DNA of 64,000 bases from assembly GCA_017466685.1 (NCBI GenBank), contig JAFTTS010000140.1:715-64714 (forward strand), in the 5' to 3' direction. The position numbers and the translations under genes are program-made. Below, piece by piece: positions 12,694 to 48,478 of this stretch (position 1 is its first letter; every line of letters starts with the position of its first letter). The stretch is from Clostridia bacterium (GTDB lineage Bacteria > Bacillota > Clostridia > Oscillospirales > CAG-272). The notes below the pieces were generated by a model. That model did not search any database. It worked only from the letters and a program-made list of their open reading frames with translations, and had not been told where the DNA came from.

Positions 12694-13239
12694 ATGGCAA
12701 AGATCAAGGATAAGCTCGGAAAGGTTACATTCTTTTCCGATTTCAAGGCGTTCATCACAAAGGGCAACGTGCTCGATATGGCAGTCGGTGTTGTTATCGG
12801 CGGTGCATTTGGCAAGATCGTAACCGGACTTGTTAACAATATCATCAATCCCGTTATAGCTTGTCTTACAGGCAGCGGCTCGATGGATGGATGGAAGATT
12901 ACACTTCGTGAAGCAGTTCCTGCTGACGAGGTGGCAGGCACAGCAGAGGTTGCCGAAGTTGCTATTACATACGGCACATGGCTTCAGACAATTATTGATT
13001 TTCTGATAGTTGCACTTTGCGTATTTGTTGCGGTACGCTGCATCAAGTCGCTTGAGAGAAAGCTCAACGCTAAGGCAATTGAAAAGGCTGAGGCTGAGGC
13101 GGCTGAGAAGAAGGCTGCAGAGGATGCCGCTGCTGCAGAGGCTAAGGCTGCAGAGGATGCAAAGCTTGCCGCTGAAAAAGCTGCACTCGAGGAGTTCTAC
13201 GCTAACATCCGTGAGATCAGAGATTCGCTTAAGAAGTAA
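12694..13239 (+). CDS. mscL: large-conductance mechanosensitive channel MscL with an extended Ala/Glu/Lys-rich C-terminus
   Basis: FKAFITKGNVLDMAVGVVIGGAFGKIV...NNIINP is the MscL TM1 signature. At 181 aa it is longer than usual because of an AEAAEKKAAEDAAAAEAKAAEDAKLAAEKAALEE segment. Confidence 0.9.
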   Translation: MAKIKDKLGKVTFFSDFKAFITKGNVLDMAVGVVIGGAFGKIVTGLVNNIINPVIACLTGSGSMDGWKITLREAVPADEVAGTAEVAEVAITYGTWLQTIIDFLIVALCVFVAVRCIKSLERKLNAKAIEKAEAEAAEKKAAEDAAAAEAKAAEDAKLAAEKAALEEFYANIREIRDSLKK

Positions 13240-13245
13240 ACGATC

Positions 13246-13280
13246 GGGACTGTCTTTTTGAGAGGCAGTCCCATTTATTT
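13246..13280 (+). terminator. intrinsic terminator of mscL
   Basis: Stem GGGACTGTC/GGCAGTCCC (one G.U) followed by ATTTATTT. Confidence 0.6.
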
Positions 13281-13295
13281 ATTCCGCCAATTCTA

Positions 13296-13845
13296 ACTTC
13301 AGCCGCGTCAGCGGCGTTTCCGCGCTAAAGAAACAATGAAGCCACTGAGCCGCCGACGCAGCTGGCGGTGGACGAACGGTTACAGTGACAAAGCGAATTG
13401 TGAGCGTTAGCGAACTGAGCGCAATTCGAGCGCAGGCAAAGGAAAGAGGGAGAGCTCGAGAGGGAAGAAAAACATCGCGCAGCGTTGGTTGTCGTCCCTC
13501 TCGAATGATACGAAGCTCGAAGCGGCATACTTTGAAGAAAGCTTTTCTCCGATATGAGCATAAAAGTTACTTTTATCCCGGATAACGAAAGAATATACGA
13601 ATTTTTTTTAGATTTCGAATCATTTTTCGAGTAATTCGAGGGACATAGGAACCAGCTGCCGCAGTTTCCTATTCCCCTCGAGCTCCCCTTTGCACCTCCT
13701 TGGCTGGGCTCGATTTGCGCTCAACTCCGCCTTACGGCTCCGGATTCGCTTTGTCACTGTAACCGTTCGTCCACCGCCAGCTGCGTCGGCGGCTCAGTGG
13801 CTTCATTGTTTCTTTAGTGCAGAGACGCCGCTGCGCGGCTGAAGT
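13296..13845. repeat. locus A of an interspersed structured repeat family: ~550-bp palindrome (two units head to head)
   Basis: 13325-13398 is the exact reverse complement of 13744-13817 (74 bp). Imperfect complementarity continues outward to 13296/13845 and inward to a centre near 13570-13620. Sequence is shared with the loci at 27.4, 40.3 and 47.3 kb. Confidence 0.9.
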
Positions 13846-13852
13846 TACTGAT

Positions 13853-13900
13853 GCAAAACAAGGGAGCTGCCCGTTTTAGTGGACAGCTCCGATTTTTTTA
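13853..13900. terminator. terminator of the SLH-protein gene (bidirectional shape)
   Basis: Stem GGAGCTG/CAGCTCC (13863-13869 / 13884-13890), with T-rich tracts on both strands. It lies 2 nt beyond the stop codon. Confidence 0.6.
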
Positions 13901-13901
13901 T

Positions 13902-16685
13902 TTATTCAACTGTGAATTCAACGAAGAAGCCAACGCCGTTTACCTCAAAGAGGAGTACATAATCGCCTGCTTCGAGAGCGGTGTCGGGAGTGATCTCGAA
14001 CGAGAAGTTTACGCCGGGAAGCTTAGCTTCGGTGAATTCCGAGATGTCAAGTTCTTCGTATTCCTCTGCTTCTGCGTCGAAGCTGTAGAGTGCGGACATT
14101 TCGAAGCTGTCAACATCCTTGAGGGTGTCAACTGCGGATACGGTGATCTTTCCCTCTGCATAGCTTGCATCAAAGCTTGCCGCACCAAGAAGAATTATCG
14201 AGGTTACCTTTCCGTCCTTGACGAGGAACTCGACATTGCCCATGAATGCATCTGCAAGTGTGATTATGGTAACGGTCTTGTCGGAATTGAGCTCGGTCAC
14301 CTTGATGCCGTCTGCAATACCGAAGGTTTCGCCGCCGATGGTTACTGTTGTCTTGGTGTAACCCGATACAACGCCGCTTGCTATGGATGCTTCCGCTGCG
14401 GAGATAAGGCTCTCTGCATCGATGAGGTAGTTCTTGCCTGCGACGAGCTCATCACTCTTTGAGTACATTTCCTTGATTTCGCCCGTTGCGAGGTCAAGTA
14501 CGGTGTAAGTGCTTAAAACTGTGCCGTCAACAAGCTCATGACCGGTGCTCTCGAGTACCTTGACACTGCTCTGGGTTGTAACGGTGTCGCCGAGAGAGCC
14601 GTCGGAAACGTAGAGGTAACGCAGGGTTTCAACCGAACCGATCTCATTGGTGAAAATAGCGGTTACGTATGCGCCGTCTCTGACTGTGATGCCCGACTTA
14701 TATGTGCCGGTGATGACAGAGTGAGTTGTGCCGTTCTTTACGATGATAAGTGTGTCATCGTTCATTACGAATCTTACAGAGGATTCGTCATTTCCTGTGG
14801 AGGTCTTGGAATCAGCACTGCCTGCCGAGATCGTGTGGTACGAGCCGGAGGGTGCAATGGTTGTCGAATCGGCGCTGTCGATGATGAACGCAATTTCGTC
14901 GTTCTTACTGTTTGACTGTACAAATTTATCTTCGCCGGATACGATGGTGCCGCCGCTTGTTGTTGCGGGAATAAGTGTGAATGTGCCGTCAGCGCTTGTT
15001 ACATAGCGATATACCTCGCCTGCGTTTACAACACGGTTGGTTACGAAGATCGTTTCTGCCACACCGTCAATAAGTGCTTCTACTGCGTAACCGAGCTTGC
15101 CTTCCACGAATACGGGAGTCGTGCCGCTCTGTGCAACAAGATACTTCGAGGGTGCGCCGATTACAGTGGTTGCGGTGTCAACTGCGAGAATGATATCGCC
15201 GAATACGACAACGCGTACTGCCGCACCGACTGTGAGCTGTTCACGTATGGATTCTGCGCTCACTCCGAGCTTTTCACTTCCGAGAGTATAGCTCTTGCCG
15301 TCGATGGTTGCGGTGGTCTTGGTCAGACGTGTGATCTTGCCGGGCTCGGTTATCGGAAGGACTGCCGAAAGCTCGAGTGTCTTACCGCTCTCGTTGAAAT
15401 AGTAGAGAACATAGTCGCCGTTTGCTGCCTTGCTCTCGTCGATGATGGAGAGGTCGGTTTCCTTCATGCCGCCGGCGAGATTTACCTTACCGTTCTTTAT
15501 TTCAAGCTTGCCGAATGCGAAGGGCTTGATTATAAGGCGGTCTGCGGTTGTGCTGTTCTTATCATCGAAGATAAGCTCTGCATCATATGCGCCGAGAAGA
15601 TCGGAGAGTGCTGCATTTGTTGTGATCTGTGTAAGAGATGCGTCCTTGTCGTAAGCGTAAACAAGAAGCTCGTTTGCGTTGGTTGCAAGTGCATCGGAGA
15701 GGGTTTCGACAACCTGGTATTTAACGCCGCCGATCTCGATATGTGCATTGTTCTTGCCGGGGGTTATAACCTCTGCGGCTTCACTCTTACCAAGCTCTGT
15801 GCAGCCGAGTACACTTACGAGCTTTGTCTTTTCGTCGCGCTTGTAAACCAGCTTGTAATTCTTGCCGAGATGCTCGTCTGCCTCACCCTCGAGTGCAAGC
15901 TCTGCGTATTTAACGGTGAGGAAGCCGTCCTCGGTGTGAACGGTTACATAGCCGTCCTTGGTTACGGTGTCAACGCCCTCAAGTGCGAAATGGTTGGTTG
16001 CAACGATGACGCTTTCATCAATTGTATAACCGAACACACGCTCGATGATCGTTGTGGATTCATAGAAGGTCATACCGTTGGATGCGGTTCTCGGAATGAG
16101 GTACTCCGCCGTGAGTGCATTGTAGAGGAGTGCGGAAACCTCGGAACGGGTGAGCTCCTTGGTGTAAGCGAGCTCCTCAATGCCGTCATCGAGACCGAGC
16201 TTGACTGCCGCATCGATGTAAGTCCAGGGGTAACCGCCGTTCATCTGGATCGAGCTGTGGCCGAGTGCACGAACGAGCATGGTCATCGCGTCCTGGAGCA
16301 TGATTCCGCCCTGAGGTGTGAAGGTTGAGTCGCTTGTACCGATGATGTAACCCGAAGCGTTTGCCCATGAGATAGCACCGCTGTAGGTGTCATTTGAAAG
16401 GTCGGTGAAGGGGGAAGTGTTTATTGTTCCCGCGGTGTCTTTGCCGATCATGAGTCTAAAGAGAAGCAGTGCCATCTGCTCACGGGTGACTTTTTCGTCG
16501 GGCGAAAATTCGGTTTCGCTTGTACCCTTTATAACTCCGATATCGGAAAGAATTTCGATTTGCTCTGCGTATCTGTCGGTTGATGCAACGTCATCGTACG
16601 ACTTCGCAAAGGCTCCGGTCGCCATTGTGGCAGTGAGCATTACAGTTGCCAGCGAGCCGGATATGAATCTTTTCAGATTTTTCAT
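13902..16685 (-). CDS. SLH-domain cell-surface (S-layer-associated) protein
   Basis: Signal peptide ending ...ATGAFA, then three SLH-like repeats (YDDVASTDRYAEQIEILSDIGVIKG..., FTDLSNDTYSGAISWANASGYIIG..., YIDAAVKLGLDDG...) and a ~700-aa T/S/V/G-rich beta-type region. Confidence 0.85.
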   Translation of the reverse strand: MKNLKRFISGSLATVMLTATMATGAFAKSYDDVASTDRYAEQIEILSDIGVIKGTSETEFSPDEKVTREQMALLLFRLMIGKDTAGTINTSPFTDLSNDTYSGAISWANASGYIIGTSDSTFTPQGGIMLQDAMTMLVRALGHSSIQMNGGYPWTYIDAAVKLGLDDGIEELAYTKELTRSEVSALLYNALTAEYLIPRTASNGMTFYESTTIIERVFGYTIDESVIVATNHFALEGVDTVTKDGYVTVHTEDGFLTVKYAELALEGEADEHLGKNYKLVYKRDEKTKLVSVLGCTELGKSEAAEVITPGKNNAHIEIGGVKYQVVETLSDALATNANELLVYAYDKDASLTQITTNAALSDLLGAYDAELIFDDKNSTTADRLIIKPFAFGKLEIKNGKVNLAGGMKETDLSIIDESKAANGDYVLYYFNESGKTLELSAVLPITEPGKITRLTKTTATIDGKSYTLGSEKLGVSAESIREQLTVGAAVRVVVFGDIILAVDTATTVIGAPSKYLVAQSGTTPVFVEGKLGYAVEALIDGVAETIFVTNRVVNAGEVYRYVTSADGTFTLIPATTSGGTIVSGEDKFVQSNSKNDEIAFIIDSADSTTIAPSGSYHTISAGSADSKTSTGNDESSVRFVMNDDTLIIVKNGTTHSVITGTYKSGITVRDGAYVTAIFTNEIGSVETLRYLYVSDGSLGDTVTTQSSVKVLESTGHELVDGTVLSTYTVLDLATGEIKEMYSKSDELVAGKNYLIDAESLISAAEASIASGVVSGYTKTTVTIGGETFGIADGIKVTELNSDKTVTIITLADAFMGNVEFLVKDGKVTSIILLGAASFDASYAEGKITVSAVDTLKDVDSFEMSALYSFDAEAEEYEELDISEFTEAKLPGVNFSFEITPDTALEAGDYVLLFEVNGVGFFVEFTVE

Positions 16686-25736: not shown

Positions 25737-27440
25737 TTGCTTTCTTCACTTCACATTGAAAATATTGCCGTTATTAAATCGGCTGATATAGATTTTAATG
25801 GCGGTTTTACGGTTCTGACCGGTGAAACGGGTGCAGGTAAATCGATAATTATTGACAGTCTCGGTCTTATCTGCGGCGCAAAGCAGTCCCGGGAGCTGAT
25901 ACGAAACGGTGAGGACTCGGCAAAGGTGTCCGCTGTGTTCACGGAGCTTGGTGAGCAGTCACAAAAGGCACTTTCGGAGCTTGGTATCAGTGCAGACGAG
26001 GACGGAGTTCTCATGTTTGAGCGCACTATAACGACGCAGGGCAAATCGACATCCCGTATAAATGGCAGGGTGATACCGTTATCACTCCAGCGTGAGGCGA
26101 TGAAGAGTCTCATTGCGATACACGGTCAGCACGATAATATGGCACTGCTCATTCCCGAGAACCATATGACGTACCTTGACGAATTTGCGGATATCGGTGC
26201 AGAGCTTGAGCAGTATACGGAAAGCTACGACAAATACTGCGAGCTGAACAGACGTATTTCCGACATTACAAAAAACGAACGTGAAAAGGCACAGAAGCTT
26301 GAGTTCCTGCGTTATCAGATCGGTGAGATCGAGGCGGTGAAGCTCAAGGAGGGCGAAGAAGAAAAGCTGCTTGCAAGGCGGAGTAAGCTCGAAAACAGCG
26401 AAAAGATCGCCCAGCTTTCGGATATGGTGTATTCATTACTTTACCGAAACGAAAAGAGTACGGCGGCGCTTGACAAGGTGAACCGTGCGTCACGTGCACT
26501 TGAGACGCTTTCACCCGTGCTTGACGATGCCGACTCGCTTATATCGCGGCTTGATGCGGTTTCTGGTGAGCTTGAGGATATCGCGCTGACGGTGGATGCG
26601 CTTCGTGATGATGAGATAGTCGATCCCACGGCAGAGCTTGATAAAGTTGAAACCAGGCTTGAGGAGATCTCAAAGCTTGAGCGAAAGTACGGAGACACGG
26701 TGGAGGATGTTTTAAAATTCCTTGCATCGGCAAAGGAAGAGCTTGAAACGATCGAGCTTTCGGAGGAACGTCTCGCCGAGCTTACGCACGAACGGGAAAA
26801 GCTTATTTCGGTCATGGATAAACAGGCGGCGGTTCTGTCCGAGCGCAGAAAAGCTTCGGCGAAGATGCTTGAAAAAATGATCGTTGACGAGCTTTCATAC
26901 CTTGATATGGGCGGTGTCAGCTTCTCATGCGGAGTTGTCACACGTCATCGAGTCGAGGGTGACGGAGGTGTACATTACGCCAAACGCGGCGTTGACGATG
27001 TGGAATTTTTAATATCAACAAACAAGGGCGAACCACTGAAGCCGCTTGCAAAAATCGCATCGGGCGGTGAGCTTTCACGAATCATGCTTGCGATAAAGAG
27101 CGTGCTTGTTAAAGCGGAATCGCCGGGTACGCTGATATTCGACGAGGTTGACACCGGTGTTTCGGGCAAGACCTCGCAAAAGATCGGTATAAAGCTGCGT
27201 GAGCTTGCCAAAGCGGCTGGAACTCAGGTGTTCTGTGTAACCCATGCGGCACAGATCGCCTCCCGTGCAGAGAATCATTACCTCATTGCCAAAAGCGAGT
27301 CGGGCGGCAGAGTTTCAACCTCGGTCACACCGCTTGACCGTGACGGACGTATCAATGAGGTCGCACGCATCATGGGCGGTATCAACATAACCGACACCCT
27401 TATTGAAACCGCACGTGAAATGATTGATGAGGTTATATGA
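25737..27440 (+). CDS. recN: DNA repair protein RecN
   Basis: TTG start preceded by GAGGGGAGGG. Walker A GETGAGKS, long coiled-coil middle, C-terminal ASGGELSRIMLA and LIFDEVDTG. Confidence 0.95.
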   Translation: MLSSLHIENIAVIKSADIDFNGGFTVLTGETGAGKSIIIDSLGLICGAKQSRELIRNGEDSAKVSAVFTELGEQSQKALSELGISADEDGVLMFERTITTQGKSTSRINGRVIPLSLQREAMKSLIAIHGQHDNMALLIPENHMTYLDEFADIGAELEQYTESYDKYCELNRRISDITKNEREKAQKLEFLRYQIGEIEAVKLKEGEEEKLLARRSKLENSEKIAQLSDMVYSLLYRNEKSTAALDKVNRASRALETLSPVLDDADSLISRLDAVSGELEDIALTVDALRDDEIVDPTAELDKVETRLEEISKLERKYGDTVEDVLKFLASAKEELETIELSEERLAELTHEREKLISVMDKQAAVLSERRKASAKMLEKMIVDELSYLDMGGVSFSCGVVTRHRVEGDGGVHYAKRGVDDVEFLISTNKGEPLKPLAKIASGGELSRIMLAIKSVLVKAESPGTLIFDEVDTGVSGKTSQKIGIKLRELAKAAGTQVFCVTHAAQIASRAENHYLIAKSESGGRVSTSVTPLDRDGRINEVARIMGGINITDTLIETAREMIDEVI

Positions 27441-27745
27441 GTGGTGGGCGTTAGCTGTAGAGAACCCTCTCCGACTCGCTGCGCATAGATGCTTGCATCT
27501 GTTACACCTTTCTCCCGGAGTGAGAGGCTAAAAGTAACACTTTGTGCAGTAAAACGAAAAAAGGTGAATCTGATGCCGGCGAAGCTGGCAGGACAAACGG
27601 TTACAGATGACAAAGCGAATTGTGAGCCTGCGAACTGAGCGCGAATCGAGCGCGGCAAAGGAAAGAGGGAGAGCGCGAGAGGGAAGAAAAACATCGCGCA
27701 GCGTTGGTTGTCGTCCCTCTCGTAAGATACGATAATCGAAGTGAA
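27441..27745. repeat. locus B of the interspersed structured repeat family (recN-tyrS spacer)
   Basis: 27575-27745 aligns almost base for base with 13345-13515 of locus A (for example ACGGTTACAG.TGACAAAGCGAATTGTGAGC and GGCAAAGGAAAGAGGGAGAGC.CGAGAGGGAAGAAAAACATCGCGCAGCGTTGGTTGTCGTCCCTCTCG). 27465-27540 is the reverse complement of the GCCTCGCCC..CGGGAGAGG..GAGTCGGAGAGGG module seen at 40.4 and 47.4/47.7 kb. Confidence 0.85.
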
Positions 27746-39768: not shown

Positions 39769-40299
39769 ATGTCGTATATTAAAAAAATCAAGCGTAAAAT
39801 TTCCTGTGAGGTACGCTCCGAGCTTTCGCGCATCAATTTTCGCTGTGTCATAATCGGTGCAGTTATAATCCTTCTCTGCGGTGTACTCAGCGCAATTGTT
39901 GCAGGTCCGACCACGCTTTACCGTGAGCTTGAACGCCCACCCCTTTCGCCACCTGCGTTTCTTTTTCCGATAGTGTGGACGGTGCTTTACATACTTATCG
40001 GAGGTGCGACAGGAGCGGTGACGTGTTCGTGTGAGCGTTCGGTCGAATCCGAAAAATATAAAGGACTGCTGTTTTTTGTGATCATGATGGTATTCAACTT
40101 TATCTGGTCGCCGCTTTTCTTTGGTGCAGGCGCGTTTTTTGCGGCGTTTTGTGCGATCATTGTGATGATAATACTGACGTTTTTTATTATCATTTTCTTC
40201 TCACGCATATACAAGGTTGCGGCAGCAGTAATGGTTTTATATCTCGCGTGGCTTTTCTTTGCCGCATATCTGAACTTGGGAATCATTATTCTTAATTGA
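39769..40299 (+). CDS. tspO: TspO/MBR family (tryptophan-rich sensory) protein
   Basis: PPLSPPAFLFPIVWTVLYILIG and later FNFIWSPLFF...YLAWLFFAAYLN, on a five-TM layout. Confidence 0.8.
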   Translation: MSYIKKIKRKISCEVRSELSRINFRCVIIGAVIILLCGVLSAIVAGPTTLYRELERPPLSPPAFLFPIVWTVLYILIGGATGAVTCSCERSVESEKYKGLLFFVIMMVFNFIWSPLFFGAGAFFAAFCAIIVMIILTFFIIIFFSRIYKVAAAVMVLYLAWLFFAAYLNLGIIILN

Positions 40300-40344
40300 T
40301 GGATATAAATGGGGACTTTACTTAAAGTTTAACGGAAAGGTTTT

Positions 40345-40930
40345 TCTGCGATGTTTGGGGTTATTGCAAAACATCGTTTTGCTGCTCTGACTAACTTAGC
40401 CTCGCCCTTTGGGAGAGGTGTCGAGCATAGCGAGACGGAGAGGGTAATTCCGAGGCATACTGCTTTGAGCTTCGCGTAAATTCGAGAGGGATGGACACCA
40501 GTTGCACAGTTGTTCCACTACACATCGCTTTCAGCGAGTGTTCTCGAGCTCTCCCACCCTTCCTTGCCGACGCCCGATTTGCGCTCAGTTCGCTTCGCTC
40601 ACAATTCGCTTTGACACCTATACCCCTCGAGCCGCCACCTTACGAGGGCGGCTTCACTCCCTTGTTTATTTTACTGCAAAAAAGTTAGTCTGTGCAGGTA
40701 AGTTTCGTTTACCGTTGAACATCGTTTTACTGCTCCAATCTAACTTTTCTCGCCGACGCAGTTGGCGAAAACGAACGATTACCGTTATACGAGCGAATTG
40801 TGAGCCGTAGGCGAACTGAGCGTGCCGAGAAGACCGCCCAAGGAAGGTAAGGGGTGCCCGAGGGGACGGGAAACTGTGGCGAGAGTTGGTTCCTGTCCCC
40901 TCGGAAAGCACTGCACAAGCGATAGTACGG
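40345..40930. repeat. locus C of the interspersed structured repeat family (one unit plus an inverted partial unit)
   Basis: 40385-40680 is collinear with 47360-47640 of locus D. 40745-40905 is in the opposite orientation and collinear with 13345-13503 of locus A. Confidence 0.85.
40348..40381 (+). terminator. terminator-like hairpin downstream of tspO (also the first module of repeat locus C)
   Basis: 8-bp stem CGATGTTT/AAACATCG (40349-56 / 40369-76) followed by TTTT. Confidence 0.5.
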
Positions 40931-41004
40931 CAAACACCGATTACGCTCTTTCAAAAACAGGTAGCAACAAATTAATATAGCTTTCAAAAAACAACGATTT
41001 TCTA

Positions 41005-41033
41005 TTGACAAATTTAGAATAAAAGAGTATAAT
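41005..41033 (+). promoter_or_regulatory. sigma-A-type promoter of the DUF4430-like lipoprotein gene
   Basis: TTGACA (41005-41010), a 17-nt spacer, then TATAAT (41028-41033). Confidence 0.65.
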
Positions 41034-41108
41034 ATATCCATAAGCAACATAAAATGTGTGCACTATCATTTCACACCGTGCTTATACTAAAATATGGAGG
41101 ATTTTAAA

Positions 41109-47170: not shown

Positions 47171-47319
47171 AGTTATATATCTCCGATTCAAAATGAATTA
47201 TTTTACTTTTCATGCATTTTTCAGCGAAAACTTTACGTAAAATGCATACACGTAATTAGTATACTACATTTTTTCGAAAATTGCTATAATATATTGTAAA
47301 TTTTCAGTGTTTTTTTGAT

Positions 47320-47760
47320 TTGTTTTACTGCGGAATATTGTTCTGCTGCTTTGGCTAACATAAAGCCTCGCCCTCCGGGAGAGGTGGCGAGCGAAGCGAG
47401 ACGGAGAGGGCAAAGTACGCCGCTTCGAATTTCGCGTAATACATGAGGGGAGCAGGAACCAGCTGCGCAGTTTCCTATTCCCCTCATACTCCCCTTTGCA
47501 CCTCCTTGCCTTACGCCCGGGTTGCGCTCAGTCGCTAACGCTCCAATTCGCTTTGACACCTGTACACATCGAGCCGCCACCTTACGAGGGCGGCTTCACT
47601 CCCCTGTTTCTTTCACTGCAAAAAAGTTAGTCTGTGCAGACAAGTTTCGTTTTACAGCGGAACATTGTTTGGCTGCTTTGACTAACTTATAGCCTCGCCC
47701 GCCGGGAGAGGTGGCGAGCGAAGCGAGTCGGAGAGGGCAAAGTACGATTCTTCAAACTTC
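47320..47760. repeat. locus D of the interspersed structured repeat family (about 1.3 tandem units)
   Basis: The unit starting TTTTACTGCGGAATATTGTT...GCCTCGCCCTCCGGGAGAGGTGGCGAGCGAAGCGAGACGGAGAGGGCAAAGTACG at about 47323 restarts at about 47649 (TTTTACAGCGGAACATTGTT...GCCTCGCCCGCCGGGAGAGGTGGCGAGCGAAGCGAGTCGGAGAGGGCAAAGTACG). Confidence 0.9.
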
Positions 47761-47774
47761 ACATGAAATCTCTC

Positions 47775-47812
47775 TAAACAAAAAGGAGCTGCTTTCGTAG
47801 AACAACTCCTGA
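47775..47812 (-). terminator. intrinsic terminator of the maturase-like gene
   Basis: On the minus strand, stem AGGAGTTG/CAGCTCCT (one mismatch) followed by TTTTTGTTT. Confidence 0.6.
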
Positions 47813-47818
47813 AATTTA

Positions 47819-48478
47819 TTATTTTGCTGCGGTTTCGCACATCATTACGCATTCGATACGCTTCTTTTCAAGCTCACATTTCGCATTTTGCGCAGACGCC
47901 AGCGAACAAAGCTTGAATGCCCAACAGCCTGCGCAGGATTCTTCGTCATGTGTTGCCGGAATATGTTTTTCAAATGCGGTGAACGGCTTTTCGTCTGCTC
48001 CTGCACGTGCACGCTTGACCTGCTCTTTGGCGATTTTTTCAAGCTGCCTTGCGATTGTCGGAACGTCCTCCTCCGTGAATGCAGGGAGGTTTTCGGGCGA
48101 ATCCACGATGCTGATCGTAACATCCTCGCCATCCTCTGCAAGCTTCTTTACGATATCGAAAATGTGAGGATCGGTACGTGTGCATACTGTGTCGCCGACC
48201 TTGATTGCCGCGCCGCCGTGTACTGTTTCACTCTCGCCCTTGCCCTCCGCAAAAAGTTTGCCGTCACGGTAAAGTGCGTAAAGCTCATTATATGTTTCGC
48301 CGATTGCCGCGCTGTCATATTTCGCGAGATCGTATCTGAGTGCTGACGAGCATTCCTTCGGCATAGGCAATTCAATATAGTCGAGCATTTTGTATGCAAG
48401 CTCGGAAAGCGGAAGCACCAGTCCCGATACGTTATCGTACGCGATGCGCTGACCGCCGAATTTGAATGTATGTACCAT
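47819..48478 (-). CDS. SCIFF/anSME-maturase-like protein lacking the radical-SAM core (reduced homologue or decayed gene)
   Basis: 219 aa. The N-terminus is MVHTFKFGGQRIAYDNVSGLVLPLSELAYKMLDYI and the C-terminus is CAGCWAFKLC...CELEKKRIECVMM, resembling the two ends of clostridial rSAM-SPASM maturases. There is no CxxxCxxC anywhere. ATG 48478 is preceded by GGAAGGA. Confidence 0.5.
   Translation of the reverse strand: MVHTFKFGGQRIAYDNVSGLVLPLSELAYKMLDYIELPMPKECSSALRYDLAKYDSAAIGETYNELYALYRDGKLFAEGKGESETVHGGAAIKVGDTVCTRTDPHIFDIVKKLAEDGEDVTISIVDSPENLPAFTEEDVPTIARQLEKIAKEQVKRARAGADEKPFTAFEKHIPATHDEESCAGCWAFKLCSLASAQNAKCELEKKRIECVMMCETAAK

Follow-up and report, generated by a model that had tools for sequence, protein, structure and literature searches.

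Introduction

Repeats with the potential to fold into an intrastrand triple helix have so far been of uncertain biological relevance, knowledge of them coming from searches of sequences and, for one near-invariant Escherichia coli family, from work in vitro. These potential intrastrand triplex (PIT) elements have been divided into classes I and II (PMC4666352). The TMECO or BoxC elements of E. coli (Hoyne et al., 2000; Holder et al., 2015, PMC4666352) have the consensus CCCTCNCCC-N3-6-GGGNGAGGG-N3-GGGNGAGGG, occur as inverted doublets and have been proven to form a DNA triplex in vitro (PMC4666352). They have been associated with local genome instability, and their pattern has been reported from Proteobacteria (262 genomes), with no Firmicutes or Clostridia named in the main text of that study (PMC4666352). 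The class I layout has been described so far mainly in E. coli and its relatives. Here we describe a repeat family of an uncultured gut Clostridia bacterium (assembly GCA_017466685.1) whose copies were analyzed starting from a stretch of 64,000 nucleotides, referred to below as the window, which is part of contig C133 of a 148-contig draft genome (2.32 Mb, 46.7% G+C, 89% complete). An initial annotation of this window had proposed that two hairpins of the repeat, hairpins 1 and 2, are preserved by compensatory base changes and that these changes reflect selection for structure in RNA or single-stranded DNA.

In our judgment it is moderately probable, from the sequence comparisons described below, that hairpin 2 supplies the Watson-Crick pairs of a potential intrastrand triple helix, situated in a non-coding interspersed mosaic repeat and kept by selection on one strand. 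The layout on that strand is a purine tract of 7-14 nt, a loop of 3 nt (2-8 nt over all genomes), a purine 5' arm that mirrors the tract, an apical helix with its loop, and a pyrimidine 3' arm. A purine tract, a complementary pyrimidine tract and a third, mirroring G/A or G/T tract are thus all present on one strand, as in class I PIT elements, and in all parsed copies they follow the class I order of reverse-Hoogsteen tract, purine and pyrimidine (5' to 3'). The second connection is 13-57 nt long, however, and so exceeds the short loops used to define PIT elements (0-10 nt in Hoyne's search and 1-6 nt in ITxF); with its own helix, this loop would let hairpin 2 escape an ITxF search.

Hairpin 2 resembles TMECO/BoxC in having pyrimidine, purine and mirror purine tracts (three G-rich tracts) on one strand, in its potential triplets, which are G·G-C plus A·A-T or T·A-T, and in its tens of intergenic copies per genome, often present as inverted doublets of two subtypes and without orientation bias. 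It does not fit the TMECO consensus, as its order is that of class I (third strand, purine, pyrimidine) whereas TMECO is class II, and its tracts vary widely whereas TMECO copies are near identical. In addition, hairpin 2 is embedded in a multi-hairpin arm of ~220 nt, unlike TMECO, and its host is a gut Clostridium rather than one of the Proteobacteria; unlike the proven TMECO triplex, that of hairpin 2 is predicted from sequence.

Covariation and Strand Asymmetry of Hairpin 2

Covariation of hairpin 2 was assessed in 50 distinct copies; this genome contributed 38 and four congeneric species the other 12. In this set 82.0% of the cells were paired, compared with 74.2 ± 0.6% after shuffling (0/500 shuffles as high) and 47-54% when the partner was slid. 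The number of cells changed on both sides was 127, as against 49.9 ± 7.7 in the shuffled sets (0/500), and the covariation score was 0.371, versus 0.233 for shuffled and 0.14-0.17 for slid partners. In the main helix, 15 of 18 pairs had changed on both sides, and as single-stranded DNA the hairpins fold at a z of about -5 relative to dinucleotide shuffles. A switch at the base of the stem from CGAG...CTCG to TGAG...CTCA (C-G to T-A) was found in two separate subfamilies of this genome and also in two further genera (genomes G093 and G063); it arose repeatedly, in four lineages, and is not one inherited change.

The two strands are not equivalent with respect to this fold. Fifty-seven of 60 hairpins were more stable on the + strand of the arm, which carries the purine tract (mean difference of 4.4 kcal/mol, Wilcoxon p = 1.4e-10), and G·U pairs numbered 87 on this strand versus 21 on the other. 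The same asymmetry was obtained with DNA energy parameters for three copies in the window, in each of which the 5' tract was left unpaired by folding models that allow Watson-Crick and wobble pairs only. That wobbles and stability are biased to one strand argues against correction of one arm by the other and for a function of a single strand. Taken with covariation far above the controls and with the recurrent switch at the stem base, this supports the proposal of the initial annotation that the paired changes in hairpin 2 represent selection for a single-stranded fold, beyond shared ancestry.

Two parts of that proposal stand in a modified form. An inner AGGAA/TTCCT helix had been thought to be kept by most copies; a helix is present at this site in most of them, but its sequence varies, AGGAA/TTCCT being one among several co-varying versions. 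For hairpin 1, which had been expected to behave in the same way as hairpin 2, the stem and its variants are real, but the case for covariation is thin since the stem is almost invariant, with a core (GCCGCC/GGCGGC) that is near invariant over 61 distinct copies and with only two to three compensatory events. The TCGCC/GGCGA version represents a single event common to five copies, the stem has been rebuilt as TGCCGGC/GCTGGCA in three copies, and there is one further shifted stem. The pattern of hairpin 1 is compatible with selection, as weak evidence for it.

A Mirror Purine Tract Upstream of Hairpin 2

Directly 5' of hairpin 2 there is a purine tract, separated from it by a 3-nt loop (CTC, CCC, TCC, TAT, TTT and others), that mirrors the purine 5' arm and is not complementary to it. 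This third tract was not recognized in the initial annotation, and it changes what the structure most likely is. Within the genus, mirror tract, purine arm and pyrimidine arm are, respectively, AGGGAGAG, GAGAGGGA and TCCCTCTC in one variant, AGGGGGAG, GAGGGGGA and TCCCCTTC in another, GGGAGGAG, GAGGAGGG and CCTCCTC in a third, and AAAGGGAG, GAGGGAAA and TCCCTC in a fourth, while tract GGAGGGAG occurs with purine arm GAGGGAGG. The mirror relation was tested in 29 unique haplotypes by register-aware counts, with the tracts shuffled among haplotypes. At positions 4-9, tract and arm were identical in 134 of 174 comparisons, compared with 93.2 ± 5.0 in the shuffles (maximum of 115 in 20,000), with 63-109 when the register was slid, and with 97 when the tract was read as a direct repeat. 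Position 4 is illustrative, with tract and arm being AA in 7 haplotypes, GG in 21 and GA in 1.

Other roles for the tract were considered and rejected. Antiparallel Watson-Crick pairing between the tract and the 3' arm, as in a switch of the terminator/antiterminator type, showed no covariation (74.4% versus 74.7%; score of 0.270 versus 0.275), and the direct-repeat reading scored like the shuffles. A G-quadruplex is disfavored in that the main variants of this genome have two GGG runs only, and a quadruplex would leave the A positions unconstrained.

In one subfamily (13683-13712 and 47489-47515 of the window, both on the - strand, and related copies) the box just 5' of the mirror tract is AAGGAGGTG, a perfect Shine-Dalgarno sequence, and in the TATGAGG/TTTGAGG variants a start codon lies 11 nt after it and opens a short frame through the hairpin. 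The combination of AAGGAGGTG and this frame is probably a coincidence.

The Hairpin 2 Module in Other Genera

A covariance model of the hairpin 2 module was used to search other genomes. Of 121 genomes sampled from the family, 17 had the module, and these represent 13 of 97 genera. Where present it was usually multi-copy (34, 33, 23, 13, 12, and 12 copies), and outside the family it was found in one other genus only, of 139 in the order. The mirror relation persists across at least 13 genera of the family despite quite different sequences, with runs of up to 13-14 positions. For example, when the mirror tract is read from the loop outward, tract and purine arm are both GAGAGGGGCGGGAA in G042 (14 nt) and both GGGGAAGAGAGAA in G058 (13 nt), while they are GAGAGGGGTGTTA and GAGAGGGGAGAAA in G093 (length 13), GGGAGGTGGGAGA and GGGAGGAGGGAGA in G081 (13), and GGAGGGGATAGAAA and GGAGGGGAAAGAAA in G105 (14).

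The triplets G·G-C, A·A-T and T·A-T are those of the antiparallel GA/GT, or purine, motif (PMC2532714). Counting as canonical a G opposite G, an A opposite A or a T opposite A at positions 4-12 of 70 unique elements, we found canonical triplets at 434 of 615 positions, compared with 298 ± 10.6 after shuffling (maximum of 350 in 5,000); with the copies of this genome removed, the corresponding values were 315 and 222 ± 9.2. Runs of canonical triplets had a median length of 7.5 and a maximum of 13. Where pyrimidines interrupt the purine arm, C recurs opposite T-A (six distinct 8-mers in three species) and T or C is found opposite C-G, although the clean cases at interior interruptions are few and these preferences are not firm.

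Some loci in other genomes have their own arrangements. A single hairpin 2 unit in G009 (L005, contig C43, 1340-1640) lies between a promoter-like site (TTGAAA...TATGCT/TAATAT) and a clean intrinsic terminator, and resembles a free-standing small-RNA gene of ~230 nt. At L032, L050 (G136) and L034 (G042) the unit is symmetrical, with a pyrimidine tract that mirrors the 3' arm following the hairpin; these units have the third-strand/purine/pyrimidine layout on both strands, and as a duplex they are a classical homopurine mirror repeat of the H-DNA type.

A Putative Intrastrand Triple Helix

A structure that would account for all three tracts can be outlined. When the strand becomes single-stranded, the purine and pyrimidine arms would pair and the upstream tract could fold back antiparallel along the purine arm, where reverse-Hoogsteen triplets of the kinds G·G-C, A·A-T and T·A-T would result; such a fold is the purine motif of class I. 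Selection holding all three tracts matched would permit copies to diverge yet remain paired. By elimination, the mirror relation is most simply read as like-with-like antiparallel contacts, in the form of base triples along the purine arm, since the Watson-Crick alternative is unsupported and, to our knowledge, neither template switching nor arm-to-arm conversion nor any other replication or recombination error can make mirror repeats. A twofold-symmetric protein, for its part, would need direct repeats and not mirror repeats.

The likeliest substrate would be DNA that becomes exposed during replication or repair or through supercoiling, as with the TMECO/BoxC elements of E. coli. We infer a structure at the DNA level because the copies show no bias relative to transcription, are often located behind terminators, and carry tracts of the purine motif, which has been reported not to form with RNA strands (Semerad and Maher, 1994, as cited in PMC4666352). 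In its behavior the repeat may be REP/MITE-like, either selfish or genome-architectural, and come to lie in intergenic DNA, in many cases right behind terminators.

Organization of the Repeat Family

Searches with blastn and an iterated nhmmer profile identified ~86 arm matches in the draft genome, 70 of them near full length and all intergenic. Several contigs terminate within copies, so the real number of arms is higher. An exact-pattern scan for the conserved linker in a collection of genome contigs that excluded records close to this genome gave 0 matches, the pattern being too strict. An arm is ~220 nt long and consists, in order, of an outer end (CAxCAAxC-TAACTTCAGCCGC, set by alignment of 21 copies), hairpin 1, the conserved linker, a purine-rich box (GCAAAGGAA or GCCAAGGAG), hairpin 2, and TTACGCG or GATACG. 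Over the whole draft genome, arms are paired in 15 convergent doublets of ~550 bp and in 0 tandem pairs, with the two arms of each doublet, left and right, consistently drawn from different subfamilies. Other arms are linked to a second module, module B. Solo arms have no orientation bias relative to the neighboring gene (23 same, 15 opposite).

By our count there are ~45 true outer ends, of which 19 lie 0-28 nt past a terminator-like hairpin with a T-run; in the window this concerns 13246-13295 and 13846-13900, on either side of the doublet. The bases immediately outside TAACTTCAGCCGC are semi-conserved (CAxCAAxC). The terminator-adjacent ends may reflect a preference for insertion behind terminators or only survival there. 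As to a MITE-like nature, no target-site duplication was evident at the doublets, which do have long inverted arms and defined ends, and no orthologous empty site was recovered within the genus, which is too divergent for this: the flanking genes are ~74% identical, lie on other contigs or are missing.

In a second species of the genus (G003) the best arm copies are 92-93% identical to those of this genome. For orthologs of the flanking genes, identity in other congeneric species is only ~74%, where such orthologs were found at all. Conservation of the repeat may exceed that of the genes, or species may have exchanged it.

Module B has the order pyrimidine, loop, purine, 18 nt, mirror purine, which is the class II order of TMECO/BoxC in E. 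coli. Two variants exist, CCTCGCCC/GGGAGAGG/GGAGAGGG and CCTTCTCC/GGAGAAGG/GGATGAGG, which are unlike in each of the three tracts; the second has a T·A-T triplet. Its arms CCTCGCCC/GGGAGAGG are almost the same as those of the mismatch ("mm") type of TMECO, including a G·A mismatch. Relative to the TMECO consensus, its 8-nt tracts are arranged as CCTCGCCC-N3-GGGAGAGG-N18-GGAGAGGG, with a second loop of 18 nt and not 3. Judged by these layouts, the same mosaic repeats hold two independent modules of potential triplex type. A short core of module B, CTCGCCACCTCTCCCAAAGGGCGAGGCAAAGTTAG, also forms a tandem array with a spacing of 47 nt outside the window (G000, contig C55:59342-59480).

The family has features in common with other bacterial repeats. 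Like REP/REPIN sequences with RAYT in E. coli and Pseudomonas, it consists of abundant intergenic imperfect palindromes, often after genes, with inverted doublets as the apparent unit (15 convergent, 0 tandem here) and with stems kept by compensatory change. It differs from them in that its arms are ~10 times longer and modular, and in the absence of a GTAG box and of any RAYT found. With pneumococcal BOX, enterobacterial ERIC/IRU, the Correia elements of Neisseria and bcr1 of Bacillus cereus it shares a mosaic of exchangeable modules (here the arm, module B and the center), predicted folded transcripts and compensatory substitutions between copies. We know of no description of a mirror-repeat third strand in any of these four. 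The initial annotation had suggested a comparison with Rfam, and the repeat matched no curated family, there being no relevant match in the window at the gathering score (tRNA only) and only noise at E values up to 10 over 13200-13920.

Copies in the Window

All of the hairpin 1 and hairpin 2 stems reported previously from the window were present where they had been placed. They sit in four intergenic spacers (13240-13900, 27440-27704, 40299-41094, and 47191-47819) that are packed with copies of the repeat family. The genes adjoining the spacers are ordinary (mscL, an SLH-domain protein, recN, tyrS, dnaE, PBP, and secA), and the SecA of the window is 67-70% identical to those of uncultured gut metagenome-assembled genomes of the Eubacteriales/Oscillospiraceae type.

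The first spacer contains a type I element (13296..13845), an inverted doublet of ~550 bp that is one of the 15 convergent doublets and is situated between the terminators of the convergent mscL and SLH-domain genes, whose two arms were detected as inverted repeats of 97 nt with 94% complementarity. Its left arm carries hairpin 1 (CCGCC/GGCGG; 13350..13368, +), the mirror purine tract AGGGAGAG (13447..13454, +), which is the candidate third strand and is unpaired in the minimum-free-energy fold, a CTC loop (13455-13457), and hairpin 2 (13456..13504, +), with a purine 5' arm beginning TCGAGAGGGA and a pyrimidine 3' arm ending TCCCTCTCGA. The stem of this hairpin 2, CGAGAGGGA/TCCCTCTCG, is present at 13457-13503 and again at 27676-27722. 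In the right arm, hairpin 1 is at 13774..13792 (-) and hairpin 2 with its mirror tract at 13636..13690 (-), the tract being AAGGGGAG (13683-13690) and the bulged stem CGAGGGA/TCCCCTCG (13637-13680).

The recN-tyrS spacer is taken up by a solo arm (27541-27745) oriented like tyrS. Here the mirror tract AGGGAGAG (27666-27673), a CGC loop and hairpin 2 together span 27666..27723 (+), and the rebuilt hairpin 1, TGCCGGC/GCTGGCA, previously listed as GCCGGC/GCTGGC, is at 27575..27589 (+).

In the third spacer, hairpin 2 at 40849..40904 (+) belongs to a five-copy subfamily and has the stem CCGAGGGGAC/GTCCCCTCGG (40858-40904), a tract, AAGGGGTG, that is a weak mirror (score of 5), and an apical loop similar to the loop kept in other genera; the TCGCC/GGCGA variant of hairpin 1 is at 40750..40768 (+). 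The same spacer holds a type II arm with hairpin 1 of the AGCCGCC/GGCGGCT form (40630..40653, -) and a sixth hairpin 2 copy that the initial annotation had missed (40482..40555, -), whose purine arm has an inserted stem-loop in place of its GGG. In the fourth spacer, the hairpin 2 from which the initial annotation started (47443..47487, -) has the stem ATGAGGGGA/TCCCCTCAT, which on the - strand reads TATGAGGGGA.../...TCCCCTCATG, with a TAT loop (47486-47488) and the mirror purine tract AAGGGGAG (47489..47496, -) on its 5' side; hairpin 1 of its arm (AGCCGCC/GGCGGCT) is at 47572..47595 (-). Module B occurs at 40400..40444 (+), as pyrimidine CCTCGCCC, loop TTT, purine GGGAGAGG, 18 nt and mirror GGAGAGGG in a TMECO-like class II layout, with further copies at 47366..47410 (+) and 47693..47737 (+).

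Alternative Explanations

A number of observations weigh against the triplex interpretation of hairpin 2. The tracts are low-complexity G/A runs, so that baselines are high (74% of cells are "paired" even in the shuffles), and the copies are related, so that shuffles, which ignore kinship, overstate their independence. The crossing-bracket form of the mirror test was weakly informative, three of its four columns barely varying or being off register and one slid control being equally high, and for this reason we relied on the register-aware counts. Mirrors are weak in some copies, such as those at 40849-40904 of the window and in G053, and the second loop of 13-57 nt, which holds an extra helix, is far longer than in described PIT elements. 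In about eight copies a stem-loop of 22-25 nt (e.g., CACTCGCTGAAAGCGATGTG) has been inserted into the purine arm or stands in place of some of it, its site differing slightly between two positions, while the mirror tract and pyrimidine arm are retained; these are 40482-40555 (-) of the window and about seven others (e.g., C41:27325-27551, C96:166-400, C139:5335-5557, C1:15152-15388, C78:10484-10721, C51:19789-20020, and C86:3561-3778). This insertion is left unexplained by the triplex model. The mobility of the repeat is putative. Three further features that count against a DNA triplex have an RNA-like appearance, namely the one-strand excess of G·U-type wobbles in hairpin 2, which is a classic RNA signature, the conservation of the apical loop ACTTCGGCGTTTGAGATGG across genera, and the copy in G009 that lies between a promoter-like TTGAAA...TAATAT and an intrinsic terminator. 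They would fit an arm that is transcribed as a read-through 3' untranslated region or as a small RNA, with hairpin 2 serving as a 3'-end stabilizer or as a processing or protein-binding site and the purine tract forming RNA base triples or having another role, for example a Shine-Dalgarno-like one, given AAGGAGGTG just upstream in one subfamily. A convergent doublet would also present its sense-orientation arm first to a transcript from either side. We consider a structured RNA a serious rival, though rather unlikely, as solo arms have no bias in orientation to genes (23 versus 15), many elements are downstream of intrinsic terminators, no Rfam family matches, and among mismatches in DNA hairpins, too, G·T is the one tolerated best. 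The tract rules (G·G, A·A and T·A, antiparallel) are moreover those of the purine motif, and if the fold did form in RNA it would contradict the reported exclusion of RNA from that motif.

The hairpin and its 5' tract could alternatively be a single-stranded DNA site that is bound and cut in trans by a transposase of the REP/RAYT or IS200/IS605 kind, with selection for mobilization preserving the structure. The strand-specific structure would suit such a site, as would the high copy number, the intergenic spread, the REPIN-like inverted doublets and the patchy occurrence within one family (13 of 97 genera), with multiple copies where present. However, a search for a Y1/HUH (RAYT) transposase (PF01797) was negative in this genome, which is 89% complete, but recovered controls from 6 of 14 genomes, and the open reading frames between widely spaced arm pairs (C108, C1, and C12) are ordinary genes, such as a release-factor-like one, and include no transposase. 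Neither a GTAG-type box nor a target-site duplication or empty site was found, and recognition by a transposase alone does not explain a tract that mirrors the arm; we regard this explanation as quite unlikely. Highly improbable, in our view, is an origin without selection on structure, in which arms of a quasi-palindrome are corrected against each other by template switching or gene conversion and a few master copies are then amplified. Correction of quasi-palindromes is an established mutational process, and the copies do form subfamilies, so that many of the double changes are inherited and not independent. Arm-to-arm conversion had been named in the initial annotation as the process that might explain the paired changes, but it is insufficient: it predicts perfect stems on both strands, whereas wobbles are frequent and confined largely to one strand, it leaves the co-varying 5' mirror tract unexplained and cannot generate or keep a mirror repeat matched to the arm in 13 or more genera, and the same compensatory switch recurs independently.

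Implications

Base-pair covariation is accepted evidence for RNA helices, and what is new in hairpin 2 is that three tracts vary widely yet stay matched, so that evidence of the covariation type can be applied to triplets. If a triple helix is formed by hairpin 2, the fold and not the sequence would be what the element needs, with a possible use as a barrier to replication or repair or as a recognition structure for its own spread. Should the triplex not form, the repeat would still be a well-documented new structured family. If it were confirmed, the copies would provide a ready set of natural sequence variants for testing the rules of triplex formation, and the structure would explain the assembly breaks at the repeats, in which several contigs end. 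It would also represent a DNA-structure-based feature of the genomes of abundant gut Clostridia, and we tentatively suggest that the co-variation of three tracts in at least 13 gut Clostridia genera may offer comparative evidence from nature for selection on reverse-Hoogsteen (purine-motif) triple helices in living bacteria.

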